A stretch of 54,379 nt of DNA, from contig NMRA01000025.1 of NCBI GenBank assembly GCA_002633005.1, positions 941,338 through 995,716 on the forward strand, read 5' to 3'. Both the position numbers and the translations under genes were made by a program. Below, in pieces: positions 3,601-52,712 of this stretch (position 1 is the first letter of the stretch; each line of letters opens with the position of its first letter). Source of the stretch: Phoronis australis. Lineage: Eukaryota > Animalia > Phoronida. The notes below the pieces were generated by a model. That model saw nothing but the letters and a program-made list of their open reading frames with translations, did not search any database and was not told the origin of the DNA.

Positions 3601-6600
3601 CTGCATTGCGTTTCCATCACAATTTGATTAATCGCCATACCCTTGCCATTTACTGAGTTCACAATTTGATTAATCGCCATACCCTTGCCATTTACTGAGT
3701 TCAGGCTAAAGCAAGAAATAAAAAACCTCCCTGCAGCAAGAAAATACAAACTGCAGAAACCATCCAATAGCTTTACCTTTCAAGGCCAGTAAATATCAGC
3801 ATTCAACTAACCTTTCCTCTGAGCCACCAGCATAGTATTCATTTCCTTGATTTTCGTCCTTTTTTTCTGCTTGCTTTAATCCACCAATAGTACCAAACCT
3901 GCATTGAACCACAACATTATCACAAGGCTATTCAATAGTTCACTTTCTGCCACCAAAATCAAAAAAATTTGAACAAAGCAAAAATAAAGTTTAAGGAAAG
4001 TCAGTTCATTTGCCATTTCTCTGCAAATAGAGACAAATATTTTCCAGCACCAGGGCCCTCGTTGATCGGAGAGGAAAGCTGGCTGTGACTTCTGATGAGA
4101 ATTTTTTCGTACAAGGAGAAAATTCTACCTCCTGATCACCATCAATGGTACCCCCACCATGCTGCAAGCTCTCATAGGCTCTGCCTCATTTTGTGCTTTT
4201 CCAAATTGTCACCTGTGTGGGTGATTTGAACCTCAAGGGGAGTTTTTTAATCACTTGAGGGGAATTTTGGGGGCTCGTGAGGGCAATTTCGCGTGATTTT
4301 TCAATATTTTTCAGAGGGGGACAGGGCTGATATTTAGCCCCAAAATCGAGGGATTGAGGGCCCTGAGTACTCCATTTTTGGCATATCCCATATATTGCAC
4401 AGTCCTAGTTGTTCTGTGCAATAGTTAGAAATGATACCTGGAAGGTTTACTTGTCCTCTGCGGTGGTGGTGATGCAGATCTGACAGGAGGTTGAACAGGA
4501 GGTGGAAGTTCATCGGCATCCGGACCTTCATCAAAGAATCTGGCTAGGGCAATCTGAAACAAAAAAATGACTACTTACACATTGGTCGGGCGCAACAAGC
4601 AAAAGGGAGACTAGTATAGAAATACTGACAGATTCTGAGGGTTATATTAGGTCACATGGATAGAGGGGGAGCAATAAGGCCGAAGGAAGGTTTGAATGTC
4701 GGTTACCAAATGAATGCGAGGAAGAAAAGGAGATCGAATTTATTTATTTATTTAAACTTCTTTAAAAGACTGGGTGATGATGTTTAACAAGGGCATAAGA
4801 TCAAAATACAACTTTATCTTACTGCTTTCCCCGTTCGATCCACAAACATCCGAAGAAGCTGTGTAACTTGTGTATTGCCACTGCGTATTCACTTTTACTA
4901 CCAACTTTTGCATGGAGATGAAGTTTTCCCTGTCAGGTTAAGGTGTGTGGCAGTTAATTTGGGCAAGATTACAAGTGGCTGGGACCAAATATAGCCAGCC
5001 AGCTAACTGTATGAAGACTATCATCAAAATACAGATGGGTACCACTGTGTGTTGAGCTCCGTTAGACCACGAAATTTCACACAGCCCAGGTAGTTGAACT
5101 CGTAACCTTGATGTGAAACTTTAATTAAAATGTAACAAAGAAAAGTTTGTCGTCATTTTGAAAACAGTGCAGTTATGTTACGTGCATGCACCATTTTCTA
5201 AAATTTTGCGACATCTCTTGGGAGATGATGACAACTTCAGTCAGCAGCAAAATTTGTTCCGAAATTTGGTTAGCTGGTATTAAAATACTAAAAACTTGTA
5301 ACGAAATACAACCAGTTCCACTAATTTGTTGTGACATGTACGCAAGCTCGTGAAAGAAACATTTGATTGACGAATCGGTGAAAACAGAAAGTGGCCAACA
5401 GGTGACACAATATTTCATGGCGCTGAAAACCGACACAAAAGACTGCATCAACAACCAATAAATAATTTAGTATACTCAAGGAAGATTGTAGTTTTATTTT
5501 TGTGTCAGATTTTATTAGGCCATTTTTTACCCACATTGGTGCAAAGCTGTATATTTAGCATGCAGCTTTGCACCAAAGCTACGTGGCGAGCTGCCCAGAT
5601 ATTTACACGCAAGGGAAACACTGTTACACAGGGGGCAGAGCATGATCAATATATCCCTCCTGAGACGTTTGAGTACATCTCTGACTTTGGTTCGTGGATA
5701 TCACCTCAGCCTCAGGCTTAACTGGGTGCCACTGTGGAAAAAATCAACACGTCATTGCTGTTTGACAGTATATTTGACAGCTGGAACACTGCCTGGTGCG
5801 TCCAAAAGCCATTCGGCTAATGAGAAAATTCTTATTGATTGGTATATGATTTGGAAGTGCTTTATTTGACTGTAAGTAATGCACGGAAACAGAAATTCAT
5901 TCAACACTGACACTGTCATCGACATCGGTATGCCGACAGTTAGGCAACACGTAGCCCTTCGGTTGGCCATTTACATTTAGGGGCTACATAGGCAATGACC
6001 ATCGCCTCTGTAGGCCCGAACCAGAGGCGATGCAGAGGCTATAGGCGCTCTGTACGCCGGAAGCTTTTCGTCGAATTATGCCTCGCACCGACTAAACCAT
6101 CAAAGACACGTTGTTATAAATACCTTTTGCGCATAGAGGAACACCTTAGGAGGTTGTCAATGTGCTTAAGTCCTTCCAACTCGAACAAATACTCCCATTA
6201 TGAAACTTTTTCTTCGATCAGTCCCTATTTCAGTTCTCAAAATCGTGAAATCAAAATTTTCATTTTTTTTTAACCAGGCCGAAGGTCAGAAGTTGCGATC
6301 CTACCGGCGAACTTTGAAAGCTGAAGTTCCCGCCCTTTGCGTACGTGCTGCCGGGAACCAGCCGTGCATTTGCCGTGTTGTTAAACATTAAAATGTCAAA
6401 TATGTGCACAAAGACTATTAAATGTCATATCAACAGCATTTATTTTTATCAAATACAAACAATAATTCATTGAAATATAAACAGTTTCAAGTAACGCCAA
6501 TTAAAGACAAGTATAAGTGGTGGCATTTTGGAAACGAACATTTGACTGACAAGACCGCAATGGCTCACCTTTGGCCTATTCAAAAATTGAGGTTATGAAG

Positions 6601-8280
6601 TCACATCACCTAGCGAGCGCGGTAAAAATTGGAGCGTGCGCAGTACAAAAATTTTGATTTCACTATTTTGGGAACTGAAATAGGGACTGCTCGAAGAAAA
6701 AGTTTCATAACGGGAGTATTTGTTCGAGTTGGAAGGACTTAAACACATCGACAACCTCCTAAGGTGTTCCTCTATGCGCAAAAGGTATTTATAACAATGT
6801 GGCTTTGATGGTTTAGTCGGTGCAAGGCATAATTCGCCGAAAAGCTTCCGGCGTACAGAGCGCCTATAGCCTCTGCATCGCCTCTGGTTCGGGCCAACAG
6901 AGGCGATGGTCATTGCCTAGGGGCTACAGTACTTCTGTTGTGAAAGTGCTTCCGGTGAATCACATATGAGCCTCTGTTAGCCACTCGCTAACGGGCAATT
7001 GCCTATTAGCTGAATGGTTAGCACGCTCGCCGGTTAAATCGGGGTTGCTGGTTCGATTCCCGAGGTCGGGCAATCTCGGCTATTACGACAAATGGCGTAG
7101 TCGGCAAACGGATGATCTACCGATGAAGCACTGCCAACTAGTACCCACGGACCTCGGGACAGCGCGCGTTGAAGGTTCCAGGAGTCAAGGACCTGTATGA
7201 GAGACGACCTTGTGTTCACCTGTGTTGTGGTGGTAAAGGTACCAAGGGACGTTGATGACCTGTATGCGAGACATCCTGGTGTTCACCTTCCTGTCGTGTG
7301 CCCGTTCCGTAGGAAAGGGGGGAATGTTGTAGATGTGCTTCCGGTGAATTATATGAGCCTCTGTTAGCTACTCGCTAACGGGCAATTGCCTATTAGCTGA
7401 ATGGTTAGCACGCTTGCCGGTTTTATGGGGGTCGTAGGTTCGATCCCCGGGTCGGGTAATCTCGGCTATTACTACAATTGGCGTAGTCGGCAAACGGATG
7501 ATATACCGATGAAGCACTTCATAGACCCTGGGTCCTGAGACAGCACCCTTGTTGGTAGGGTACAGGCATAATGTAAGGTGCATGTACAGGCATAATGTAA
7601 GGTGCATGTACAGACAGGGTGTAAGGTACGTGTACAAGCATAATGTAAGGTACGTGTGCAGGCATGGCGTAAGGTGCATGTACAGGCATAATGTAAGGTA
7701 CACCTAGTTGGCTGATGGCGTGCTTGTTGATAGGAAAGGGGGGAATGTTGTGAAAGTGCTTCCGGTGAATCACATATGAGCCTCTGTTAGCCACTCGCTA
7801 ACGGGCAATTGCCTATTAGCTGAATGGTTAGCACGCTCGCCGGTTAAATCGGGGTCGCTGGTTCGATTCCCGAGGTCGGGCAATCTCGGCTATTACGACA
7901 CTTCCATTCGCTTCCTGTACGGATTTCATTACATATATTTTAAACGGGCGGTAGGCCAAATCCGGCCACCGATTTTGAATTTTCACATCGTCAAAAATAC
8001 AGTCCACGCTTAAAATTATCACTTAAAAAGTGCTTACTTTCTTCATTGTAATTGCCTAGCCGACGGTCAAAATGAAAAAGGACTGTGTCATGCTGTTTCC
8101 TTGCCTCTGTCAAATCAGTTTGGCACTTACAAAACCAATCAAAAGCAATCAAACTTATTTTAAAGAAGTATTTACATCAAGCTTCCAAGCGGATGATTCT
8201 AGATAGAACTGGGCTCTTTCTTTCTCTACTGCAGTTACGTTAATGAACTCAGACAGCAAACTACTTCGATCTGTGTCCAT
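558..8280 (-). CDS. NSFL1C: NSFL1 cofactor p47 (p97/VCP UBA-SEP-UBX adaptor), 5' part; gene continues beyond the left window edge
   Basis: Exons 8280-8176, 4553-4438, 3898-3812 and 635-558 have GT/AG boundaries and compatible phases. They give MDTDRSSLLSEFINVTAVEKERAQFYLESSAWKLD-IALARFFDEG...RFGTIGGL...EYYAGGSEES-GEVIIGPSKKKNASKFVEDMMKAARE, matching the remembered p47 pattern [58 protein letters not shown]. Confidence 0.95.
784..946. mobile_element. MITE with CAGGGGC-type TIR and apparent 5-bp TSD
   Basis: CAGGGGCAGATCTAG...CTAAATCCGTCACTG flanked by CCACA on both sides. Confidence 0.65.
1094..2586 (-). mobile_element. Helentron/HINE-like non-autonomous element with internal higher-order tandem array
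   Basis: Terminal palindrome TGCGTCCACATA-TAAA-TATGTGGGCGCA, short GACG microsatellite, internal repeats of about 150 bp; related copies in the opposite orientation at about 18566-19161 and 20238-20836. Confidence 0.6.
3617..3702 (+). repeat. Perfect 42-bp tandem duplication
   Basis: TCACAATTTGATTAATCGCCATACCCTTGCCATTTACTGAGT x2. Confidence 0.9.
3812..3898 (-). CDS. NSFL1C: NSFL1C coding exon 3
   Basis: Acceptor TGCAG; (R)FGTIGGLKQAEKKDENQGNEYYAGGSEE(S); donor GTTAGT; 87 nt, phase 2/2. Confidence 0.92.
4051..4365. mobile_element. MITE with CAGGGCCCTC TIR
   Basis: CAGGGCCCTC...GAGGGCCCTG; flanks AGCAC/AGTAC. Confidence 0.65.
4438..4553 (-). CDS. NSFL1C: NSFL1C coding exon 2
   Basis: Acceptor TTTCAG; IALARFFDEGPDADELPPPVQPPVRSASPPPQRTSKPS; donor GTATCA. 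Confidence 0.92.
5989..6919. mobile_element. Non-autonomous Mutator/MULE-like foldback DNA transposon
   Basis: Highly similar TIRs of about 270 bp (5989-6260 / 6648-6919) starting TAGGCAATGACC; perfect 9-bp TSD GGGGCTACA at 5980-5988 and 6920-6928. Confidence 0.88.
7001..7072 (+). pseudogene. tRNA-like Pol III cassette inside LTR1 (repeated in LTR2 and LTR3); not a canonical tRNA
   Basis: A box TAGCTGAATGG 7007-7017, D-stem GCT/AGC, B box GGTTCGATTCC 7050-7060; acceptor and T stems imperfect. Confidence 0.65.
7558..7700 (+). repeat. 24-bp minisatellite inside the second TRIM internal domain
   Basis: Unit approximately GGTGCATGTACAGGCATAATGTAA x6. Confidence 0.9.
8176..8280 (-). CDS. NSFL1C: NSFL1C coding exon 1 (UBA-like domain start)
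   Basis: ATG at 8280-8278; 35 codons MDTDRSSLLSEFINVTAVEKERAQFYLESSAWKLD; donor GTAAAT. Confidence 0.93.
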
Positions 8281-11757: not shown

Positions 11758-14700
11758 GTGTCTGTGCGTGTGCGTGTGTTTATTCAATGACGAGCGTGGG
11801 TCCATTGGTTTTTGTTTTGATAATTACGGTACAGTTCATTGAAATGTACCACAAAAAGGTAGATTAAATGATGAATTACATGGAGGGGAAATGAGAAAAC
11901 AAGAATACCGAACATTCAGTGTAGTTGGTCCTTTACGTAATGGACAAAAAGCTGTCATGACGATGTGACTGGCAAGCTAATGCTACACTTTTGTAATTGG
12001 ACAGTGATTAAATAATGTGCAAACGGTATTGTCAGTCAGTGATTATGGTTGCGATTATAGAATTGTAAAATGTAACTCACTAGCGTTCTGAGAGCACAAG
12101 CATGACTTCTGTTTGGCCCAATATCAAGACCAGTAAAATAAGATGATATGAAATTCCTTTCATTCACAAAATTTAATGGCTGGTGATTCAATGTGAATCA
12201 TCTTTCTATTTTGCAAATGGTGATTTGATGCCATGGCAATAGCACAGAATTAAAAATGCTGTGAAATTTCTCTGCTTCAAACTCTACGTACACGTTACAT
12301 ATAAGTTGCGTGACATTGCACATTTGCTAACGAAGTCTTCGTAACTCCATAAGCGATCATATCTCAGAAAAGGATGATGAAGTTTTTACGAAACTTTCAG
12401 ATTCTTTCTTTTATGCACTGTTATCTAAAGTGCTGTTAGAATTAAATCAGTTCTTGGCCACAGTAAGATTAAAAACCGGACGATCGCCGCACAAATGACT
12501 ACTCTGTATCTCTCACTTCACTTCATGGATGTCACCTGATATGTATGTTGGCACTTTTTGTCCTATTGAAATATCCTGATGCTGTCTACGGTAATGAATA
12601 GACGAAACGTTGATTTATCATGAACTTCTTCATTTGTGCGGCGATCGTCCGGTTTTTAATTTTTGAGAGATATTTATGAGGGGCTATAAAAATTCAACTT
12701 TTGTTAATTTCTTGAAAAAACTTAACATTTTCATTAAGCAAAACTTGGTCATGTTACAAATGTTGTGTTTAATGTACCTGTCTTTACTAAATGTTACTAA
12801 TAATACAAGGTCAAACTCAGAGGTACAAGGCTGTCAGTTGTCACTCAAATCGAATCTCCCGGTGCCAGGCAGAGAGCAGTTCTGTTTGTATCCTAAATCC
12901 TTTCATTCACTGAATCACCATAGTATTGAGTCAACGAGTTGTACATAGCATAGAAAGATGCTGCCAAAAATGAAGACAAAACGTTCTTATCCCAAAGGAT
13001 TTGTGCATCTGCATGCATGCTAGTACAACTGTTGAGAACGAATGCATCAACTCTTAAGTCGTTGCACCGCCTCTGTCACTTTGTGTTCACTAATGCAGCA
13101 AGTTGTTAAAAAATATTAATCCTCTCCAAAATTCATTATTTGGATTGGTAATTTAACATTTGGCTGTTTTGATCTCGTGCTCACATTGCGCTTTAACCAC
13201 CAACTTGATTTCTGTCGTCCATTTTGTACTTTGTTTCTTGGCTCCGCGGCGCATGATATGTATTCAATGAATTGTTGGTCTACTTACTGTTGGTTCCGCC
13301 TTTTGACCTAGTTAACTCGAGGGATATGAAACCCCACGTACAAAATTAAAGCATTTTAGTAATAATTAAGTTAATTACCCAGTTCTAATTTCATTTGACA
13401 TTGCAAATGAATGTTGAAATAGCGAACAGGTTAAGACATGTATAGGTTGTATTGACCGAAAGCAAGTTTTCACTGGAAAATGGCATGGCGAATTTCACCG
13501 AAACTTTCTGGTGTTTATATTTATTCATCAATCTCAAAAACACGATTAGGATTTTCCTTTTATACACATAATTTTTGCGTACTGTAAGAGAGACGAATAC
13601 GACTGATATTTTTTTACAAAAATATCCTATGCTTTGTGAGATAATTTGGTATAGAAACAAAACTGAACGTCAAGTCATCAAAAATTCCTAGCTGTGTTTT
13701 TGAGGCAAATTGAGAAGTTTAATTTTAAAAGGGTTTCATTAACATCCACGAAGAGGTTACTTTGCTGTGAATGAACTTTTTTAAAACGGAAATTTGTCTT
13801 AAAAAGGTGGTAATAATAATGGTACATAAATGTACTGGTAAAACATTATTTTTTAATCTCTGATCTTTTTTCTTTCAGAATATATATACTTTTACTAGTT
13901 TGTATAGCCTGGTTTTTGTATACGAGTTAGGATGAAGGTCACTAAATAAGGTTTGAGATAACCGCGCAGTACAGCAATTACCAGTATGTCATGATTGATC
14001 AGGTACATTTTGTGTTTATGTGTCAAGACAGATTGAATTAATTTTGAATTTTCTCATCTGTTTTCTCATTGGCTGTTGAGCCAGTTGTCAGATCATACTG
14101 TGGAATGTTGTGTCACCCACAGGTAAACCTTTGTGTACCTATCCACCCACACACACTCACCTGTATTAGTTATCTTTTGTTTACCTTCCCCACTGCTCTC
14201 TCTGTACTTTCCTGTATGGTAATCTTATGAGCTTAATAGAGCTTAATAATTGTATTTTTATGCTGTTGTGGGTAAAGTGCATAGTATTGTTTTTGAATTT
14301 AGAAATATTGCCTTTTTTCGTCTTGAGATAAAAAGTACATGACTTCATTGCGTTATGAGGATGTATAAATTAAACAACAAAATTTAACTAATTAATATGT
14401 TTAATCATAAACTATTGTACATGGACCGCCAACTCTGTGTTTGTTCTCAATGAACAAGAGCTATCTTTTTGACGTTTTAGACCTAATGAAATCAAATTAA
14501 AGTGCTAAAATTAGTGAAATGCTAACAATTAGGCCAAATTTACATAGGACTGTAATCTGCTGAGCCCTTACTAGAATAAGGACCTGGTGAATCTTTAAAA
14601 TTCTTCTCAACTCCCTGGGAGAACATATTCAAGGTACCTAAACTACTAGTACACGGTTAACGGACATAAACACGGTCACAGATGCATGAACACGACTCAC

Positions 14701-17700
14701 GTACCTACAAACACCCTTCACTGACTCACAAACACGGGAACGGACTCACAAAACATGATCCCTTCACCCAAATACACGGGACATGGACTTACATTCACAA
14801 AGAAACATGGTTAACGGACCGCCAAACACGGGTCACGGACTCCATGGGCTACCTGGGTCAGCTGAAATCTACATTTTGTCTGTAAACCATGTTTGGCGGT
14901 CCGTTAATCGTCTTTCTTCGTGAATGTGAGTCCGTGTCCCGTGTATTTGGGTGAATGGATCATGTTTTGTGAGTCCGTTCCCGTGTTTGTGAGTCAGTGA
15001 ACGGTTTTTGCAGGTACGCGAGTCGTGTTCATGCGTCCGTGACCGTGTTTATGAGTCCGTTAACCGTGTAGTTTTGGTACCTTGATATTGCCTGCAAACC
15101 TCGTTGGTCCGTACCTGTGAATTCAAGCTTAAATTTTATCAAAGTTTCAAGTGCTAAAATGCCTACATCAAAAAATTCATGTCGGCTGCTGTATGTATGT
15201 CTGGCCCTCAGTAGCCAACACTGTTATTTCCTTGTGCACTGCCAAAACCAACGTATTTTGCAGCATATTAGACAGAGAGCGTCTCAAATTCTGATTTTAA
15301 AGTGATTTATATTTTTTTCTAAGCCGTTGGCTCTGATCAACACATTTGGATTGTTTCATGTATTGTAACCCTGTTTTAGTCTGTCTGTTTTAGTGTCAGT
15401 ATTGTCACGTGTTGAATTATGAGACAGAATTTACTATTTCTGTTTCACAAGCAAAGACTTCTTGTCTTACTAGTAAGTGCCTCATTAGTGTGTTGCCTAT
15501 ACACATCCCCATAAATACTTCTTGTCTTAACTTAGTGGCAACACACTTATAGGCACTTAATAAGTGTCTATAAGTGTGTTACCACTACACATCCCGTATC
15601 CATGGAATACTTCTGAATTGTACATATAAATTTCTTCTCACATGTTAATTTTTTCTGATGCCTAACTTTAATTGAAAATGTTCGAGGTAACTGTTAGGGA
15701 TATTGCGGTTTCCTTTTCAGTTGTTGTACTGTACTTACCGATCATGTGATATCTGTAAGTGGTCATGTGCCGTGGACAATTGAATCTGTTCTTAGTGAAA
15801 TTTTCCAATCATGCGCTTGCAATGTGTACAAGGAGCAGATGGGGAAGGCAGCGGTAGATAATGATTCTGAAGCAGGATGTGACTTAGCTGCTTTTTGTGT
15901 TGTTCATTATTTCATTATCAGTTTGGAATTTTACCGAAAATGAAAGCAAATGTTTATTGCGTCATGAACAAAGTGTTTATATTATCCTCTAATGTCAATC
16001 TGATTTCAAGTCACACTCTTATGTCTATTTTACAAGTGCATACACAACTTAATGGTAGTTTCATGTTCATCCTGCAACTGGGACGATGTTGTACATTAAA
16101 ATGTGATCAAGACAAAACACTGTTGAGTGGAGTTAGGTGGCATTCCATCAACATTTAAATGCCATCACATTTATATACCATCTGTGGTGTGTGTGTGTGT
16201 GTGTGTGTGTGTGTGNGTGTGTGTGTGTGTGTGTGTGTCTGTGTGTGCGTGCGTGGATTTGTTGGTAACAGCTAATCACTTCAACTTATGTTGAACATAA
16301 CATTACATTGGGATTGTTAAAATTTGCTCTTTTGAAAATGTATTATTTTCTTTTTTTGGACTTATACACAATGAGATTTTATCTTTTTTAAATTGATACG
16401 TGATTTGCACATTATTAATTTAAGAAAAGTAAGGATAGGATAATGCTGCTTTTATTAAAAAAATGTGTTACAGCTCATATAGTTCATATTTTTAATAAAA
16501 TTTAAATAATTGTGTAAAATTATACTGCCTTTTATTGTTATTCTGTGTGCTGCTGTTGTATTTGTAATGACCTTCTTACATGCAAATGACTTTCAAATTG
16601 GACCCATGCTACTGAATATTTATGATACTGTACTTACAAAGCGTCATTGGACCCGTGCAACTGAATATTTATGAGACTGTACTTTTAAAGCGTCATTGGA
16701 CCCGTGCTACTGAATATTTATGAGACTGTACTTTACCAAGCGTCATTGGACCCGTGCAACTGAATGTTTATGAGACTGTACTTACAAAGCGTCATTGGAC
16801 CCGTGCTACTGAATATTTATGAGACTGTACTTTACAAAGCGTCATTGGACCCGTGCTACTAAATATTTATGAGACTTTACTTTACAAAGCGTCATTGGAC
16901 CCGTGCTACTGAATATTTATGAGACTGTACTTTACCAAGCGTCATTGGACCCGTGCTACTGAATATTTATGAGACTGTACTTTACCAAGCGTCATTGGAC
17001 CCATGCTACTGAATATTTATGAGACTGTACTTTACAAAGCGTCGGCTCTATGTATGCATCTTTAATAAATATTAAAAGCCATAGGTGTATTATATTATCA
17101 ATATGGTGAAGATGTAGTCAGTCAGTGTTCAAAGGCACGTCTAAACATGGACCCAGCACAATGTATTTTGTGAACATGAATGCAAATATGTGAAAATATT
17201 CAAGAGCTGGTTTTCATTATGAATGTGGCAACTGACTTCACGGCAGACAAGGGAATTTTTTTTGTCAAATTTCTCAGCAGAAATAAAGATTATTAAGAAA
17301 ATGTTGCTCTTTTATTAGCTTGTTTTGCATTGTGTAGATATCATAACAACATTGGTTTGAGGTTCTGTTATTTGCAACAAGTTAAAAATCAGCCTCTGAA
17401 AAATAGAAAACCCACATTTTGGCAAAAGATATATTGATGTTTTATCATACCTAATGGCATCCCTAGTCACCTTAATATGCCCTTTCTTTAACTTATTTGT
17501 GTCAAATGGCACAAAAATGCTGCGTTGGGCAAACACTGGACAATGGGTCTCTTGGAATTTATCGGTTGACAAACCCAACCATGACCATTTTGTGTGTTTA
17601 TTTCAGCTGCTGAATATCACATGCGATGGGCTGCATTTGAACAAAACAGAGCCATTCAGGTATGAAAATTGGTATCCAATTATACACATTGTTTCCATTC

Positions 17701-29719: not shown

Positions 29720-32700
29720 TGGGACAATTCTTGTACACTCTGTAAGAGAATCCGTTTGAAATAGCAGCAATACCTACTCTGACGTCTTCATAGAAATGCC
29801 AACCTCTGATTTTTTAATGTTCGCTACAACAAACGCGTCTGTATACAAATATATCCGTGGAACATCGACAAAAAGGGGGGGGGGTATCTTTGTACACGTC
29901 TTTATAGATTTTAACGTGGAGGTACAGCTGAACGTTGCACTCTTGTTCTAGTTCAAAGCCCAATGAACTTTATTATTTTTGAAGCTTGAATTTTTAGCCT
30001 TTTGTTCTGCTTTGGGTAAGAACGCCAGGCTTTCCCGCAATTCCTCTGTCAGCTACAAAATGTATTTTGGTGATGAAATTTTCTATGCTCTCACTTGCTA
30101 TTTCTCTATGTCGTCTCTTTGGTCCTCTTGGATCATGTGCCTTCTCTTTCTTCCTACTGAATACAATCGGTCTGCACTGACTTGGTGTAAGGTTCTTGTC
30201 ATGGCAACTATGTTTTTCCTTGCTGTACCGTAAAGTCTTATGCAGCTTCTACTTTGAAAACCTCTGTAAGCCTTGAAATATATTTTTGGCAACAAAGTTG
30301 TCAGAGGTCACATTGGATAGTTTTATTTCGTGTTTTCCTTTGTTTGATCGTCCTGGAACGTGTACCTTCTCTTTCTCCCACTGACTTGGCGTATGATTCC
30401 TGATATGGCATCTATCATTGTCCTTCCTGAGCTGAAAAGTCTTATGCAACTTCGACTAAGAAAATCCATATCCAGAACCACAAAATCAAGTAATTGTGTC
30501 TCAGCATTTTGTTCAGCATTGGAAAAGGACGTCAGACTTCTCAGATTTTTGTTTCAGCTTGGCAATTCTAGCCAGAGATTTTATGAGCTCAGCTTACATA
30601 GTTGCTAATTCGATTTCTTGTCTGTTTAGTCCACTGTATTAGGTGTCTTCTCTTTCTTTCCACTTAACAACAGAGGACTCCACTGACGTGGCGTATGATT
30701 CTTGCCATGGCCTTTATATTTGTCTCTGTAGAACCGCAAAGTCTCGTGCAGCTTCTACTTAAAAAACCCACATCCACCTCACCATAAAGAAGTTGTTCCT
30801 CAGGCGAGAGTATTTCAAGGTCCTATGTTCAAGATTTTCATCTATCCTAGTCTACAACGAAACAGAAAGCTCAATCGTAATGAGTTTATGGAAACTGTTA
30901 GTATAGATGACGAAATCAGGGCGCTGTGTAGGCTAAACTATGTTCCACAGTAATGATACCTGGTGCCTGGTGACATCAGTTGCCATATTTAAACATTACT
31001 TGTACTTTTCTCAAGTCCACACAATATTTTGTTGGCTTCTCGCCATTTTCTATCCAACAAGCACGTGATCTTATGAAAGAGCTTTAAGCTCGTCTGCTGA
31101 GTTCCTGTTGCTGAGATTGTAGATCCTTGTAAATATTACTAAAACATCGTCATGATGATGATGATCCAAAAATCATGCAATAGTTAAAATAGGACTTCCA
31201 AATGGGCTTTCTCAGCAGATATCTATCTGTTTTTTTCTTTTTAGAACACTAGTAAATAGTAAATCCCCTCACTTTCATCAAAAGGACGTCAAGGAATAAA
31301 TTGTTCTCAATAGTAAAGAGATAGTTCCCCATCCGGTATCTGATTTATGTTGTCAAAATTGTAAATCAATGCAGCATATTCCTTTCTCACTTCGTAAAAA
31401 ATCTCTTTAACTTTCTTTATATATTCTATGCCTTGGAGGACTGATGCATTTAATTTCCAAAACCCTTTACCAGATGAGAAATTATTAAGTTGTATGGTCA
31501 TAGTAATCATTGAATGGTCAGTTCTATAGCCAGGTATTATCTCCGTTCATCTGAAACGAGAGAAAAATCTAATCTTGACTTTTTGACAGGGTTCAGTTTG
31601 CGCCATGTGTAGCCAGTAGCGTTTGGGTTACAAACACGCCAGGGATCTGTTAAATTTAAAACCTCTTTCATGACTTCAACCATGTTTTTGGCATTGGGGT
31701 TATTACTATTTTTATAATTGAAACAATCTATTTCAAAATTCTGCTCGATATTCCAATCACCACGTAGCTCGATGCTTTACTGGACATTTACGTTCACACT
31801 GGATACAGCACGGGTTATTTAGGAAGATTGCTGACTGTGGGCAGCATTTCAGAAATATCTAGCTAAACCTTTGCCTTAAGTGCGGGACATCTTCCATTAC
31901 ATTGTTCATTTGAGCCCATGTAAAACTTTATTGCATTTCATTCGTGCCCCTTCCTGAGCTACCGGAACTCATTCTGCGCACGTCTTCTCGTTCTCCGACT
32001 ATCTGACCGCCCTGACCATTCGGTCGTAGTAGTGTGTTGCTTCTTTTCATTGTTGACTTCTCAGTCTGTTAGCCTAATCCGTGTCTAACCTCAAAACCTG
32101 TGGCTGATAATTGCTTCTGTATTAGATGGCTTTCTGCTTCACTAACTAGTGATGGGTTTGTCCCCTTTCTTGTACACTATGTAAGAAATTCCGTTCGAAA
32201 TAGCAGCTAACCCTTTTCTGACATTTCTGCATTATTGTAAACTTCCGATTTCTTAATATACGCCAGAGCAAATGCTTCTGTATAAATATGTGATTCGATA
32301 CATCAAACACCGACAAAGAGGGGTATCAAAGAGGTGTATCATTTGACTCGTCTTTATAGATTTTGACGAGGTGGTTTTATAAGTCCTACGTAATGGTGAA
32401 AATTCCACTCTTGTTCTTGTCCAAAGCCTAATGAACCATTCTATTTTTAATAGCTTGACATTTTAGCATTTCGTTCAGCTTTGAAAAAAAGACTTCAGAA
32501 TTTCACGGCTTCTTAATTCAGCTTGGCAATGTATTCTGACCAAGGATTTTTCTGAGGTCAGATTAAATAGTTGTTAATTCGCTTTGTAGACTGTCTGGTC
32601 TCCTGTATTAGGTGCCTTCTCTTTCTTCCCACTGAACAAAGGTGGTCTACACTGACTTGGGGTATGATTCCACCCATGGCCTTTATATTTGTCTCTGCTG

Positions 32701-33400
32701 AACCGCAAAGTCTCGTGCAACTTGTGCTTAGAAAACCCATCCCGTCATAAGGAAGCTCCTCCGGTCAGTTACACCATGGGTCATTTAGAAAGATCGCTGA
32801 CTGTGGGAAGCAGGTCAGCAAGATGTTATGAAAGATATTTCTGTAAGTGAGGAGACATTTTCCATTACTTTGTTCACTTTGATCCCCTATAAAACTTTAC
32901 CTCACTCCACCCATGCCCCTCCCTCGGCTACCGGAACTCCTTCTGTGAAAGTCCTTACGCTCCCCGACTGTCTGACCTCTTTGCTTATTAAGTCTGATCC
33001 GTGACTTTTTTCTTTTCGTTGTTGACTTCTCAGTCTATAAGTCTAATCTATGTCCACCTTCGCAAGCTGTGGCTAATAAGCGCTTCTGCATTAAACTTAT
33101 TTCTGTTTCGCTGACTGGTGATGCAGCGGGCCCCTTTCCTTTGGACAGTTCTTGCACACTTTGTATGAGGTTCTGCTTGAAATAGCAGCTAAAAGTATTT
33201 TGACATCTTCGTAGACAAGTCAACTTCTCATTTCTTAATGTCCAACAAAGCGAACTCTTTTGATACATTTTGACGACGTGGTTTCATAAGTCCTTCTGGG
33301 CACAGGTGCACGTTCTACTCTTGTTCCTACCCAAAGCCTAATGAACATTTCTATATTTTTCGCATCTCGAGTTGTTTAGCATTTTGTTCTACTTTGGACA
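29720..33400. repeat. Complex diverged direct repeats surrounding the LINE fragment
   Basis: Block A recurs at ~29720-30020, ~32160-32480 and ~33145-33390; block B at ~30120-30260, ~30350-30470, ~30625-30775 and ~32595-32740; block C at ~31820-32150 and ~32780-33120. Confidence 0.7.
31200..31765 (-). pseudogene. Decayed L1/Tx1-type LINE ORF2 APE endonuclease fragment
   Basis: Minus strand reads GDWNI..DCFNYKNSNNPNA..LNLTDPWRVCNPNATGYTWRKLNPVKKSRLDF, then after a frameshift IIPGYRTDHSMI..GKGFWKLNASVL: typical GDFN/DxWR/YTW/SRLDF/DH/WKLN motifs. Confidence 0.88.
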
Positions 33401-33794
33401 GAAACGTCAGACGTTCGCAATCTTCCTCCGTCTACTATGAAATGTATTCCGTCGGCAGAGTTTTCTGAGCTCCCATTGGATAGCAGTTATTTCTCCTTGA
33501 CGTGCTGAGAAATCAGAGATGTCTGTTCCCTGTTGTTTTTTAATTTGATTTGGCAACAACCAAATAAAGGCCGTATTTATTCCAGTTGCTTTATGTTTGA
33601 CAGCTATCTTCCGATAAGTTAAAAACAGCTCGCGTGCTTTGGGAATTCTAGGTAGCATGATGGGACTTGATATGAGATGGTCAAAATTGCAGCTCAATTT
33701 AATCCTGATGTCTTGAAGTTTAGTGCGGAACAGAAACGTTACGAACGCAGGTCTGGAGGCAAACGAAAACATTTCATTTTTAAGCTCTATTTAT

Positions 33795-36490
33795 CTCAAA
33801 GCAACTTTAGAACAGACCATTATTTTGAATCTTATTGAATGAAAACTACTCACATATCCAACTATGAATCGCTCTGTTTCTCTTTCGAAGAGAGAATGAT
33901 GTCTAAGTTACTGCGTGACGTCAGAGTCTATGATGTCACAGTTTATGACATCACCACAACGTTTCATTCGCTTGTTCAGTAGAACGTCATTTTTGACATT
34001 TCGGACCCAAATGATACAAATTAGGCTTGATTTACGCAGGGCTTTAAATAAATAAGCATGTGAAAATTTATTACCTGTCCATGGACCTGCTCTATTCTAA
34101 TCCTTCTCAAGTCCTCGGGAGTATGCACTGATTACAACCATTTTCATAGCACACCGATAAATCGAAACATTTAAATATTTATTCATTTATCTATTGTAAT
34201 ATTCACAATTTGGATAGCCTCTTCAATGTCAGGACTGCTTTCCCAGAAGGCCCTCAACAACAGAATCTAATACAGTACAATATAATGTAATAAAGTTGTC
34301 AAAAACAATTAAATACAGGGAACAAAGTAACAATGAAAACAAGAATAAAATAATAAATGCATGGCGAAAGATGATTAAATTCGACCACGTGACACGAAAT
34401 TAAATAAAGAGATGATACTAAATAGTGAGAGTATTTACAGTAATGAAAAATGACATAATTAGGACAGGTGCAGATGTAAGAATGGGTAAATAAATTACAT
34501 TTGTTTACACTAATAAAGATTACACAACAGCAGGAAGGGTGAGGTATGGAAACAAATAGTTGAATTAATTAGTCTAGATTACTGTTACTATGTTAAAAGA
34601 CGCCGCTGAAAACGCTAGCATTAAAAAATCTTCACCACCATCACGGGTTCAATAAATAAATTTGACAATCGTGACTCTATTGTAAAAACTATTAGCAAAA
34701 TATTTGGAGACTGTTTCGGGAGCATTACCCTGTACTCGAGAAAGAATCATTTCTTAATCATATACAGGGTGACGTAACTTTTTCACAAAAATACTATAAA
34801 ATATGACTAGCAGAGAACTTACTGGAATCTGGATAATTTCAGAATTCCAAAAATTACAAAGTTCCTCCCACAAAGCGCAGGAGTTAAGGAAAATGTGACT
34901 GTTGACTCTAAGTGCAAAAAATGATCAATGGCGAATACATTTTTCAGACTAGTCTAAGCACTGCTAACTCTTACAGCTTTCGCATGCTCCACTGAGTGAG
35001 TACTTGCTGTACCATTCAACTACCTTGTACTCCTTCCCGTGTTCAAACTGAACACAATTTTACTACAGAAACTCATCAGCTTTGTTAAAAATCCTCCTTA
35101 TCTGCGATGGAGCTGCATAAGCGGCACCTGGTGCCAAAACTAGAAAACTGTTGTTTCTAGCAATTGTGGCAACTTTTCCAACTTTCACACGCTGCAAAAC
35201 AAACTTGTGCTTCCTGAAATATGCAAAATCGTTAATAATTCCATATGAAACTGTAAACTACGCAGTGTTCAGTTCAATCTTCACGTCTTCAAATTAAAAG
35301 TAGCGCAGAAACGGGGGGAATGCAGAAATGGCGTTACGCGAAATCACTACTTTTTACACAATTTCATGTTTAGGCTCTAATACATGAAAGCAACTTTAGA
35401 ATCAATACAGAGTACAGTTATTTGAATGTTACCCTATGAAAACAACTCACATGTCTAATTTAGAACCGCTCTGTTACTCTTTCGCAGTTAATGGTCTCTA
35501 AGTTACGGCGTGACGTCAAAGTCTATGATGCCATAGTCTTTGATATCATCACAATTTATTCACGTGTTTCCTACGACGTCATTTTGACAGTTTAACATTT
35601 TGACCTTCTCAATCTGAACCAAAATACCAACATACGAAAATATTAGGTAACTGCGTTTCTCCAATCTGTACATGTAGATTCAGTACAGACACGTCATCAC
35701 TAACGACCTGAATGTATTCTTGCTTAAGGATATGCCTGACTTCATTCACCAGAGCTTTCATAATGCATCGTTAATGCTAAATGCATTTATACCGATACCG
35801 ATATATTTGATGGTCTGCAAGTTCAGACGCTGGTGCATAATGTCACCGTGAAACACGTGGATTAGTAAAGCGAACATAACAACACCTCTAGATCAGACCT
35901 ATTGATTGTAAGAGAGATGATTGCTTTTCAACTCTATAAGTATAGTTCAAAAACCAAATGAGCTTAGATAATGCATAACAAGTGTCAAAAGTAACTTCCA
36001 GCGCGGACAGAGGTAAATATATGCAATCAATTAGACGCTGACATTCGGCTGACTATAAAAAATTATTAGTAAGAATTAAAACTGGGGAAACCTGAGGCTT
36101 TGACATAACAAGATTACACTAACGCTGTGGACCCCTACACAAGCTACAACCTATCTACTTTATCTGTTTTGGTATTTCAATCTTTATTTAACACGACTTG
36201 ATTAAACTAAAAGTGTATTTTATTGCTCATGGATCTTTATTTTTAAAAAGTACAAACAAAACTAGAAAGCAACTATGGAACCAATACAGGAAACAATTAT
36301 TTCGAATGTAACTGAATAAAAACAACTCACATGTCCAACTTTGACCCGCTCTGTTCCTCTTTCGCAGAGGTAATGGTCTCTAAGTTACTGCGTGACGTCA
36401 AAGTCTATGATGTCATTACAACAATTTATTCGCTTGTTTAGCATGAAGACACTTGATTTTGAAGTTTTTAACCCTCTCAATCTGAATCGA
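33795..36490 (+). repeat. Three dispersed direct copies of a repeat of about 220 bp (~33795-34010, ~35385-35620, ~36265-36490)
   Basis: Shared AAAGCAACT..GAA, ACTCACAT, CGCTCTGTT.CTCTTTCG and TAAGTTAC.GCGTGACGTCA.AGTCTATGATG. Confidence 0.8.
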
Positions 36491-37225
36491 AAAAGAAACG
36501 TATGCATATTTTGTGAAAAAGTAAGTGCATTTCTATTTCTATTTGTAGATCCGAAGTAGATACTAACTTTACCACTAAACATACGAATTATTTCAATTAA
36601 GGATATGTCAAAACTTATTAACAAAATGACCGTTTTTTAATAGTCTACATAATTATGTCGTACAGTGAAAAGGCAACTACAAACTTGAACCAGCTCTGGT
36701 TTATGCTCCATCTGGTCACCGGCATACAATTGCAAACGATAACGCAAGATCATTCTCTTCAGAAGCCAGAATTTCAGGTTTGGTTTCAGGGCCGTGACGT
36801 CGTAGGCCTACACCTTAGGCCTAAAAATGATCCGGCTTCGAACGGGGCCACCGCCGGTAATATAGGCTACCGGAGTAACGAACAGTCGTTCAGTCAAGCT
36901 TGACGAAAGTCGTTATTAGTATGAAAAGGAGCTTTACAAAGGTTCCTAATACAATACCGACGTACTCCAATAGATTCAGATTATTCATCGAGTCAACTTG
37001 TCGATGGACATAGTTGGATATCTTATTAGGCCTACCGTCGCCGGCTGCTGCATTGTACCGTAGAGAGTCCAGAGGTGTCAATGCAGAAGTCACAGTCTTA
37101 TAAGTAGAACAGTCTCGGCTCTCTCATCATCTTACAAAGTTAGGGCAGCCTGCTAGGCCGCTCTAATGTGGCCCAGCCAAAGCGAAATAAGGAACCTCGT
37201 TGCGTAGCCGCCATACACGTTCTGC

Positions 37226-49221: not shown

Positions 49222-50519
49222 GTGATCTTGAGATTAAGCAAGCGTTTACGACATCTAGTGTGCAGCTACTAAGTAAAATTTCGAATGGTGTACACGAATT
49301 TGTTTTTCGTGAGTTATTGTTTCTGTTTTAATTATTTTTATTGCCCATTCTGTATGTTATTCTGGTCTTGGTATGGGTGACTGGCAATCTGGGACCTTTA
49401 CAATGATAAGGATTAAGCCGGAGCTAGGTCGGATGCAATGAACAACTAGTACCGTACCGTACTGAGAGGGGTTTACCTGCCATCTCATTCCCCCGTTTAT
49501 ACGCCAGTGCTTAGAGCTCGCAATTTGCTCGTAATTGGTGGAAGTGTTTTCATTTTATATCTCACTTATGACATCGTCAATCGTTGCCAGCTTATATGGC
49601 CTTAAGCAGGGATTAAGGAAGAAGTTCAGATAACACGTACTTGTTGAGTAAAAGTGTTAGTTTTGGCAAATAAAGTGGAAATACTAATTTCATTTTTAAA
49701 CGTGCAATTAAATGAATATTAGTTTTTCATTGGTATGCTGTGTGATGTCATCAGGTCTAAATAAAAGTGATGTCGACAATCAGACAAGATAGTTACAGAA
49801 CACAACTCTCTCGAGGTTCTGTTGACAGGTTTTGAATTGTTCTCATGAATAGACTTTTCTGGCCCTACGATTACCTTTGTCTGTTCAGTACAGACCCACG
49901 TAACAATACGCCAATGTATGTAAAGACAAAAGTGGCCCAGTGAATTATACTGTCACGGTCTGTCGGTACCACTTGCTTTGGCACAATATCTTACAAACCA
50001 CTGCCAGCATTCCGTTCGCTGCCGTGAAAAGCAGCAGACAGAGTGAGGTTACATATGAATATGCGTCTTTTTGCAGGTTGTCGACATCTCTAAATACAAT
50101 TGAAAACATTTAACAACTGGACTGAAACATGGTGGCATACAGTAATGTTTGATACAAATGTTCCCGTGAGTATATGGAGGAGCATACAGACTCGGGTAAT
50201 GACATAGTTATTTAAATTGGTTTTTCATTGCAAGATCGGACTTTTGGCAGCTTTCTATGCAGTTGTCATTGTCCTTGAAGGTTGTCTTCTATACCAAAAG
50301 TGTTTGTTCCATCAACTCTTTCATTTATAGGTTATATTCATTTGTCTATAGCATAGTACGTGGGCGGGGACCCAGAGGGCACGACCCCAACAAAGTAAAA
50401 AAGAAACAGCGCTAGCGTGAAGCGCGAAGAAAAAAAGGCGAGTTCAGAAACTAGGACCCGGTGGCGGACGGGGGCTCAGGTCCCAGATCGCGGCGGAACC
50501 GCGTGTTCCCGTTTTTTTA

Positions 50520-50815
50520 GGAAGCGCAGGCACGGCACGACGTAGCACTGACTTAGGCGGGCCCCAGCCACAGCTGCCGATCGGCCAAACAGGCACGGCA
50601 CGACTGACGTAGCACTTAGGTGGGCTCACTGCAGCCAAGCTGCCGATAGCAGCGCAGGCACGGCACGACGTAGCACTTAGGCGGGCCTAGCCTAGGTGCC
50701 GAAGGCAGCGCAGGCAGGCTCCGACGTAGCGCTTAGTAGGCGGGCGCCAGCCAAGCTGCCGAAGACAGCACAGGCGGGCTCCAACGCAGCACGTAGGCGG
50801 GCCCAACTGAGCTGC
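50520..50815 (+). repeat. GC-rich ~57-bp minisatellite, diverged left block
   Basis: Variants of CGTAGCACTTAGGCGGGCC..GCCAAGCTGCCGAAGGCAGCGCAGGC. Confidence 0.85.
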
Positions 50816-50839
50816 ACATAACCTAGGACTATAATATAT

Positions 50840-52712
50840 TACTCCCAGACATAACGTAGAATTGTCGTGAGGTGACTTCACAGGGACATCAGGGTCACAC
50901 TCCTCTGATTTATCCACGGGGCGCACGGGTAAGTGCATTGGCGGAGCGGAGACGGGACTGAGATTTGAGGTTTGCGGACTTTTGTTACTGATTAGGAAGT
51001 TTCCGCGGGTTTTGGTCGCGAAACGAAATGTGTCGATTTCACCGTCAATAATCGACACATTTTAAAATGCGCGTTTTCACTATACCCTATATCGTGCCAC
51101 TGTTGTTCTTTTCAAAACGCTTTGCCTCGTCACACATTGTGTGTCAAAGCTAGAAGAGATCAGCATAATTGCAGCTGACGGACACAGCAAGTAGAACTAC
51201 TCTCGTTAATCACATTGGTGTAGACTCTCAGTTAAACTGTGGTCTTCTGTTGACCCCTGACCGTCCAATTCCGGACGGTCTCTTACGACGATTTAGCGTG
51301 GGCTCCGAGGTAGCACTTAGGCGGGCCCCAGCCAAGCTGCCGAAGGCAGTGAGCGCAGGCAGGCTCCAACGTAGCACGTACTTACGCGGGCCCCAGCCAG
51401 GTTGCCGAAGGCAGCGCAAGCAGAATCCGGCGTAACACTTAGGCGGGCCTCAACCAGGCTGCCGAAGGCAGCGCAGGAAGGCTCCGGCGTAGCACTTAGG
51501 CGGCCCTCAGCCAGGCTGCTGTAGGCAGCGCAGGCTGGTTCGGGCGTAGCACATAGGCGGGCCTCAGTCAGCCAGGCTGCCGGAGTCAGAGGGCAGGCAG
51601 GCTCCGGCGTAGCACTTAGGCGGGCCTCAGCCAGGCTGCCGAAGGCAGCGCAGGAAGGCTCCGATGTAGCACTTAGGCGGGCCTCAGCCAGGCTGCAAAA
51701 AGCAGCACAAGCAGGCTCTGGCGTAGCATTTAGGCGGGCCTCAGCCAGGCTGCCGAAGGCAGCGCAGGCAGACTCCGGCGTAGCACCTAGGCGGGCCTCA
51801 GCCAGGCTGCCGAAGGCAGCGCAGGCAGGCTCCCGCATAACGCTAAACCCTCGTGAGAGACCGCCCCGAGTTGGCTGCTGGAGCATCTCGGGGCGGTCTG
51901 GGATCAAGCAATATATACCTACCCGACAGCAAGCGAAAAAAAACTCACGTTCATTGTACTTGCACGCACTTACAACGTACGAGTGAACCATGTTAGCTAT
52001 TTCAGTATTCACACGCAATTTCGAATGAATTTGCAGTGCGTAATTAATTTTATTGCCGCTAAAAGTTAATTATTTTACCGCCCTCAGCCGAGAGGTGGGT
52101 TCACTGTTGATCTACGTAAAAGAAGGTCAACAGTTCATTGATTTACACACCACACGCCAGGAGAATGATAAGAAGCCAAGTAAGAAATGGATAACAGAAA
52201 TCTGCTGTGTTCGTGACCACATAGTCACAGACGCGTTAGGCGACTCGGAGTATTCGTTCAAAAAGGTAGTATGTATGTAGACGCACAACTCCCTCAAGCT
52301 CAAAACTACGTTTCGTCTTTGTTTTCCCGGTGTCGCGTGAAATTTCTTCCCCGTGAAATTTCTTCCCAATCCGACTTTGCGCATGCGCAGATTGGCCAGG
52401 TTGGCATCCGGTCTTGAGAGCGTGAAATTTCTTCCCAAGGCAATTCTGTACGCTACTGTGAGACAGTTGAGTCGTTATCTGCTACGAACACGAATATTCC
52501 AGACGTTTTTTGCAATGATGCATGATCTCAAGTACAGTGAGAGTGACGTGAAGAAGTTTTTGGAGGATGGATCCCATCCGTTGACTTTGACGANCTTATC
52601 GATAATCGCCATTACGCAATATCTGGGAAAAGCCAATCAGCGTTGAGACAAGACTTTGTCACGTCCCTACTAAAGTGATAGGCTTACTGCTATTATTATT
52701 GACTCTGGTTTA
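50840..52712 (+). pseudogene. Possible ankyrin-repeat/SOCS-box (ASB-like) pseudogene remnants
   Basis: GHTPLIY at 50893-50913 before donor GTAAGT; frameshifted QVELL/VNHIGVD near 51190-51230; phase-compatible exons 52088-52265 and 52503 onward ending HPLTLTxLSIIAITQYLG, which continues KPISVETRLCHVPTKVIGLLL after a 1-nt shift. Confidence 0.35.
51300..51835 (+). repeat. GC-rich 57-bp minisatellite, about 9 copies
   Basis: Unit GGCTCCGGCGTAGCACTTAGGCGGGCCTCAGCCAGGCTGCCGAAGGCAGCGCAGGCA. Confidence 0.95.

Follow-up and report, generated by a model that had tools for sequence, protein, structure and literature searches.

The 965-nt element at positions 6936-7900 of the analysed window, which comprises 54,379 nt of the Phoronis australis contig NMRA01000025.1, is very probably a non-coding TRIM of the Helenus type, likely transcribed by RNA polymerase III (Pol III) and likely mobilised by the proteins of a Gypsy-type helper. 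Helenus (TRIMp3) comprises TRIMs with tRNA-like LTRs from fungi, a lycophyte and six animal phyla (Kojima 2024, PMC10886601). The assignment builds on the anatomy of the element, its 4-bp TSD, its tRNA-Ser PBS, its dispersed relatives in the genome and the presence of two LTR types. The copy is arranged as LTR-A / internal 1 / LTR-B / internal 2 / LTR-A and is likely a hybrid of two subfamilies that was inserted recently as one piece. In addition, a hairpin is predicted in each LTR between U3 and the A-box half of the promoter core, a layout of which we did not find a description in print.

Anatomy and surroundings of the element

The features of the element are compiled in Table 1. The LTR hallmarks named in an initial annotation of this DNA (TG...CA ends, a tRNA-Ser PBS, a PPT and a 4-bp TSD) are all found in the sequence. 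The same 14-nt PBS follows LTR1 and LTR2, and with up to 2 mismatches allowed the window contains no third copy (0.12 matches expected by chance). The PBS equals 14 of 14 bases of a tRNA-Ser 3'-end template printed in PMC3299991, a template that is human and not the host's own. The PPTs in front of LTR2 and LTR3 consist of the same 14 purines, and the LTR/PBS and PPT/LTR joints are clean at four of four junctions. The longest ATG-initiated reading frame measures 103 aa and lies on the minus strand, so that the element is non-coding. As regards a helper, none turned up: at the curated cut-off, Pfam gave no match in the 63 scanned ORFs among the 91 ORFs of at least 75 aa in the window, and for the 162-aa ORF the best Atlas value was 0.78. 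With LTRs, no protein coding and a length under ~1 kb the element is a TRIM, and its 4-bp TSD, observed at one insertion, is of the animal type. Together with a PBS that fits a human-type tRNA-Ser end, this TSD indicates that the host is probably an animal.

Table 1. Features of the TRIM in window coordinates
Feature	Position	Strand	Details and basis
Left TSD CTTC	6932-6935	+	Sequence, plus element-free joins in related copies of the host repeat
LTR1, A type	6936-7090	+	155 nt, TG...CA; 154/155 identity with LTR3
Predicted fold-back hairpin	6968-7031	+	U3 arm complementary to the core's 5' half with the A box; likewise in LTR2 and LTR3
tRNA-like core of LTR1	7000-7072	+	A box 7007-7017, B box 7050-7060; decayed cloverleaf; start at 7000 inferred from A-box numbering
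Internal domain 1	7091-7324	+	234 nt; PBS 7093-7106, PPT 7311-7324
Post-PBS stretch	7105-7140 and 7491-7526	+	Predicted pairing partner: start of U3 in the following LTR
LTR2, B type	7325-7476	+	152 nt, TG...CA; A box 7394-7404, B box 7437-7447, T4 7421-7424
Internal domain 2	7477-7745	+	269 nt; PBS 7479-7492, PPT 7732-7745
LTR3, A type	7746-7900	+	155 nt, TG...CA; A box 7817-7827, B box 7860-7870
Right TSD CTTC	7901-7904	+	Sequence

The outer LTRs differ at a single one of their 155 positions, i.e., the copy is young and was inserted recently. LTR2 is clearly distinct, with 137 identities, 15 substitutions and 3 gap positions relative to LTR1, and each of the three LTRs is uniformly A or uniformly B over its full length. 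Only the first ~42 and last ~25 bases are common to both internal domains, which across the LTR end and the PBS share 75 nt at 92%. Internal domain 1 has a conserved post-PBS stretch up to ~7132, and internal domain 2 contains a 24-bp tandem array (7560-7699, 5.8 copies). As monomers, the two units would be 538 and 579 nt long. The plus strand of the element has one T4 run, in LTR2; the A-type LTRs have none, in agreement with the annotated lack of T4 in LTR1 and the first internal domain.

We regard it as very improbable that the three-LTR locus is an assembly artefact in which two repeat copies were merged. Among the reads and contigs listed none spans the whole element, and the sequencing runs listed for it, among which there is no RNA run (of no weight either way), carry at most 0.57 of its words, but the perfect TSD, the near identity of the outer LTRs and the clean joints at all four junctions are at odds with such a merger.

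A MITE-like non-autonomous DNA transposon of 931 bp (5989-6919; 272-bp TIRs at 96%; 9-bp TSD at 5980-5988 and 6920-6928) ends 16 bases before the TRIM. It belongs to a high-copy family, since many reads end their match at 6919, and its 9-bp TSD and long TIRs point to a Mutator-like element. The target of both MITE and TRIM (6920-6935 plus 7901-8060) is itself a repeat, covered by reads with many differences. Elsewhere in the window we observed a 457-bp self-inverted stretch (14629-15085, 84%; probably another MITE), clustered direct repeats that have diverged to 69-85% identity and measure 100-570 bp (29722-36607), and two GC-rich 56-57-bp tandem arrays (50519-51833). The arrays, probably a minisatellite, contain long reading frames of 250 and 153 aa in both orientations.

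Promoter boxes and predicted folds of the LTRs

An A and a B box at a spacing of 43 nt are present in three of three LTRs. The pair appeared in 0 of 20,000 dinucleotide shuffles of the LTR, for general A- and B-box patterns, and in all three LTRs the boxes also fit the Helenus motifs for box A (TRGCY, YGG) and box B (GGTTC). Three of three Rfam scans at E up to 10 gave no tRNA match in the element. With the ARAGORN threshold at 100, 95 or 90% no gene was predicted. Lowering it to 85% produced 5 calls window-wide, one of which overlaps LTR2 but begins only at 7400, i.e., behind the first base of the A box, and no credible tRNA appeared with the threshold lowered to 70%. The core folds no better than its shuffles (z 0.05 and -1.28). 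A functional tRNA gene, considered as a candidate, is ruled out by the Rfam and default ARAGORN negatives together with the shuffle-like folding. The core consists of the A and B boxes plus a decayed tRNA outline and is no tRNA gene.

Of the "tRNA-like" stretch in the initial annotation, the boxes and the decayed outline stand, whereas Rfam, default ARAGORN and the folding of the core give no tRNA signal. The missing covariance signal is one of two findings that the annotation itself had named as counter-evidence, next to a prior cataloguing of the design. Nor are the boxes preferentially conserved to a significant degree, a check proposed in that annotation: between LTR-A and LTR-B, 1 of 22 box positions differs compared to 14 of 133 others (Fisher p 0.34, one pairwise comparison). 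The sole difference falls on a free position of the B box, and the boxes are intact in both subfamilies. A fourth A+B pair with a 43-nt spacing occurs on the minus strand at 48672-48619, is unrelated to the LTR by blastn and forms, with the sequence downstream, probably the head of a tRNA-derived SINE.

According to the predicted folds, the ~30 bases upstream of the core are complementary, though imperfectly, to the core's A-box half, and this antisense arm makes up half of the ~65-nt U3. The predicted hairpin reaches z -4.8 in LTR-A (0 of 200 shuffles) and z -3.7 in LTR-B (1 of 200 shuffles). Among 583 other 91-nt segments, 3 reach z -4.8 and 9 reach z -3.7; the predicted fold-back is strong in energy, yet not unique if judged on energy alone. 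The probable SINE head mentioned above, used as a matched control, yields z -2.2 and has an A box without fold-back. The GTTAGC..GCTAAC hairpin noted earlier is present as far as its arms are concerned; in the predicted fold of the whole LTR it does not stand by itself and is part of the longer hairpin over the A box.

The hairpin is the best-kept part of the LTR, with 2 of 64 positions differing between A and B as opposed to 13 of 91 elsewhere (p 0.017, for a region picked after the fold had been seen). Both of these differences are C-to-T opposite G, and because C-to-T is the commonest mutation they only weakly support selection on pairing. In LTR-B the hairpin ends immediately before the T4 run.

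A similar arrangement can be recognised in published Helenus LTRs. In the portion of Kojima's Data S1 covered, with most insect records left aside, we scored by eye (not by computation; motif counts agree roughly) a layout of a small hairpin, a short palindrome and the A box, with an upstream arm able to pair with the box. Among the Helenus LTRs, 33 of 51 from bivalves, 3 of 3 from nemerteans and 2 of 2 from the coelacanth have this layout, and 13 of 14 from ostariophysan fish have it in a looser form. It is absent from 18 of the 51 bivalve LTRs, from those of brachiopods (3 of 3) and sturgeon/paddlefish (2 of 2) and from the one ctenophore LTR (1 of 1). A T4 run just behind the hairpin was noticed by eye in two published fold-back families of that portion only, Helenus-6_SaGl and Helenus-1_CVi. 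The running text of the paper, its figures apart, has 0 matches for "hairpin", "palindrom" or "inverted" (Kojima 2024, PMC10886601), and in the accessible parts of the TRIMp3/Helenus follow-up literature since 2024 we found no description of the fold-back, which appears unreported.

A second predicted pairing connects the stretch behind the PBS with the 5' end of U3 in the next LTR. Its energy amounts to -21.8 to -25.9 kcal/mol, which 0.05 to 2.2% of 2000 shuffles equal, and its pairing probability is 0.82-0.83 in folds of whole units. It is possible that this predicted pairing serves cyclisation. Short complementarity between the post-PBS region and the 5' end of U3 was also seen by eye in several published Helenus elements within the covered part of Data S1, e.g., Helenus-3_CVi.

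Subfamilies, transcription and mobility

Public data from one sample (four DNA runs) contain 1804-2668 contigs per run that match the stretch. Those with unlike flanks before 7325 number 43, 54, 36 and 43, and those with unlike flanks behind 7476 number 32, 29, 25 and 36. The family is interspersed, and its B-type LTR occupies at least dozens of insertion sites, a lower bound from this one sample. Related copies of the host repeat are found without the element, in reads that join 6939 to 7940 (2 reads each in X6 and X7), and such element-free reads across the site fit with the TSD and the element ends. A metagenome scan with a 20-nt LTR motif returned two loci (L001 and L002), whose match of only 21-27 nt was taken as chance.

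In most other copies the bases in front of internal domain 1 are those of the B type, as seen at 7087 (G>T) in 892 of 1213 units of summed contig depth in X1 and 11249 of 13477 in X2, depths that are not taken as copy numbers. Contig 6 of X5, which covers 7064-7457 and has B-type bases at its beginning, represents a B-internal 1-B unit, and in RNA reads, too, internal domain 1 directly follows LTR-B (joins of 7466 to 7103 and 7445 to 7091). In contig 17 of X3, matches to 6954-7134 and 7716-7900 are separated by about 215 nt; it represents an A-like unit with another interior. Two LTR types exist, with different internal domains. Because the other insertion flanks are mostly of the B type and internal domain 1 is usually joined to B-type LTRs elsewhere, the copy in the window is likely a hybrid; a likely origin of its middle LTR and interiors from different subfamilies is absent from the initial annotation. 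If it is a hybrid, the two subfamilies would meet in one particle or recombine.

The B-type monomer (LTR-B plus internal 1) would most likely have been joined to an A-type one by strand transfer between co-packaged RNAs or cDNAs. In particular, the exact order A-I1-B-I2-A would result if A and B RNAs packaged together underwent a reciprocal plus-strand transfer. An origin of the three-LTR form in the genome is a real possibility, though we consider it less than probable: a B-type one-LTR circle may have recombined into an already inserted A monomer, for which it would use the shared post-PBS stretch, or a genomic tandem may have been read through and re-inserted. The 75 nt shared by both interiors across LTR end and PBS agree with this, as do, in the portions of the literature covered, the favoured model for pear Cassandra (inter-element recombination, then transposition) and the read-through transcripts of Cassandra arrays. 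However, the LTRs are pure A or pure B and the joints lie between LTR end and interior, where strand transfers act, and a read-through would need to pass the hairpin plus T4 of LTR-B. If LTR-B terminates transcription, the three-LTR copy would more likely stem from the cDNA stage than from read-through.

Three raw RNA runs of one study have 1283-1382 reads on 6700-8150, in both orientations, of which 70-77% run on into unlike sequence. Over internal domain 1 the first-mate-minus orientation is favoured in most bins, not all. The reads of these three runs display no sharp starts or ends and no discrete transcript on 6700-8150; they are compatible with the presence as well as the absence of a Pol III RNA.

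Alternatively, the boxes could be the relic of a captured SINE or tRNA piece in an otherwise ordinary TRIM, which would be transcribed by Pol II from its own U3 or by read-through from host genes. Such a relic would be in line with the absent covariance signal in Rfam, a box conservation not significantly above the rest, the A-type LTRs without T4, RNA reads that occur in both orientations and mostly run into the flanks, and the status of Helenus in general, for which no promoter or RNA end has been mapped so far and Pol III use is not validated (PMC10886601). We nevertheless consider the relic improbable: the boxes are intact in both subfamilies, where their sole difference hits a free B-box position, the same boxes are kept in Helenus families of several phyla, and a U3 of only ~65 nt, half of it antisense arm, is left to such a promoter.

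For the preferred Helenus reading we infer the following course. With TFIIIC, Pol III would initiate close to where the core of the 5' LTR begins and end within the 3' LTR, as has been reported for Cassandra. The Gypsy-type helper would package the RNA, tRNA-Ser would prime the minus strand and the PPT the plus strand, and the integrase would make the 4-bp TSD upon insertion. Pairing between the post-PBS stretch and the 5' end of U3 may bring the RNA ends together.

In such an RNA, U3 would be transcribed in the 3' LTR only and the fold-back would form only there. It would cover the RNA's A-box half and may contribute to the definition of the 3' end. This is the weakest step of the mechanism, and we regard it as doubtful. 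Short U tracts terminate Pol III more effectively next to RNA structure, according to the abstracts of two preprints (bioRxiv 2020.09.11.294140, 2021.08.27.457903), and hairpin plus T4 would allow transcription of a B monomer to pass the first LTR and terminate in the second, with an R of ~35 nt. As the A-type LTRs are without T4 and T4 was noticed in two published families only, termination by hairpin plus T4 cannot be general. The hairpin may alternatively shield the 3' copy from tRNA processing or have a role in packaging.

In its widest form, the fold-back would be a conserved working part of one cross-phylum Helenus lineage, in bivalves, nemerteans, the coelacanth and the present host, and in looser form in ostariophysan fish, acting as a switch by which the 3' and 5' LTRs are distinguished. 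We consider this unlikely. An LTR element driven by Pol III has to handle its two identical LTRs in different ways; in retroviruses, U3 signals activate the 3' LTR only. If the hairpin, in LTR-B combined with a short U tract, determines where the RNA ends and blocks tRNA-like folding of the 3' copy, it would explain why Pol III passes the first LTR of such an element but terminates in the second, and would be the Pol III counterpart of such retroviral signals. It would also serve as a marker linking animal Helenus across phyla and argue for their shared descent, whereas Kojima speculates on separate origins.

For the contrary view, that the fold-back has no role in RNA ends and is an old inherited inverted duplication, a packaging signal or something that acts at the DNA level, we find the chances evenly balanced. 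T4 is absent from the A-type LTRs and, by eye in the covered part of Data S1, from behind the hairpin of most published families, and the layout is lacking, again by eye, in the bivalve, brachiopod and sturgeon/paddlefish families counted above as without it. By the same by-eye comparison, though, the pairing is kept among bivalves, nemerteans, the coelacanth and the present element with differing letters, and a neutral relic would not long keep its pairing while the letters change.

Comparison with known systems

The tRNA-derived SINEs (SINE2) resemble the present LTRs in a head with A and B boxes that lacks a functional cloverleaf. SINEs have no LTRs, PBS or PPT and are mobile by LINE target-primed reverse transcription. 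Ajax, a nemertean TRIMp3, is similarly an animal TRIM with a small-RNA promoter in the LTR, but differs in the 5S-derived promoter, a 5-bp TSD and a tRNA-Leu primer.

Cassandra has a Pol III promoter inside its LTR and its Pol III transcription has been reported (PMC10886601), the latter unlike Helenus. It shares with the present element the Pol III-type promoter in the LTR and forms with three or more LTRs and a TSD. The latter are common: in the data extracted for pear, they account for 182 of 1175 intact copies with TSD. For three-LTR TRIMs with TSD, template switching or inter-element recombination has been proposed (PMC4079214, PMC7215508). The differences lie in its 5S rRNA-derived promoter, a 5-bp TSD in pear and its occurrence in plants. 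Rfam at E up to 10 gave no 5S match in the element, and its boxes are tRNA-type, which sets it apart from the 5S promoters of both Cassandra and Ajax.

The closest likeness is to Helenus. Animal Helenus elements have 4-bp TSDs and PBSs common to Gypsy elements, with 51 families in bivalves alone, and Kojima reads them as non-coding TRIMs with a tRNA-derived internal Pol III promoter and a Gypsy-type helper (PMC10886601). The functional reading in the initial annotation agrees with this and is sound; its suggestion of novelty, made without knowledge of a well-described animal TRIM with tRNA-derived LTR cores, is superseded, as the design had already been published and catalogued under the name Helenus (PMC10886601). 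Shared characters are the short non-coding TRIM, A and B boxes in the LTR, a PBS for a tRNA 3' end, the PPT, the 4-bp TSD, several subfamilies per genome and the lack of a functional tRNA, many published Helenus families likewise failing as tRNAs (PMC10886601). The LTR length of 152-155 nt falls within the 104-193 nt of bivalve Helenus, and tandem forms have been noted for LTR-11_DR (PMC10886601).

Nearest in layout, by eye and within the covered portion of Data S1, are Helenus-1_CGi, Helenus-2_CVi, Helenus-2_PiNo and -3_PiNo, Helenus-1_LiLo, LTR1_LCh and LTR-11_DR, in which the A box is likewise preceded by a small hairpin and then a short palindrome. The present copy differs from these Helenus elements in that its middle LTR and interiors likely come from two subfamilies. 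Its PBS is unlike both tRNA-Ser PBS types of Kojima's Fig. S2, and the PBS strings "tggcgtagtc" and "ggcgtagt" have 0 matches in Data S1, where control strings have 48 and 61. Nine short motifs of the element and two more gave 0 matches there as well, with positive controls matched, while two further 8-mers match only unrelated internal sequence of fungal and wasp elements. Since its PBS is absent from Data S1, the family is new relative to that list. Judged from its sequence, the element is a further Helenus family, with a primer site outside the published list of Data S1.
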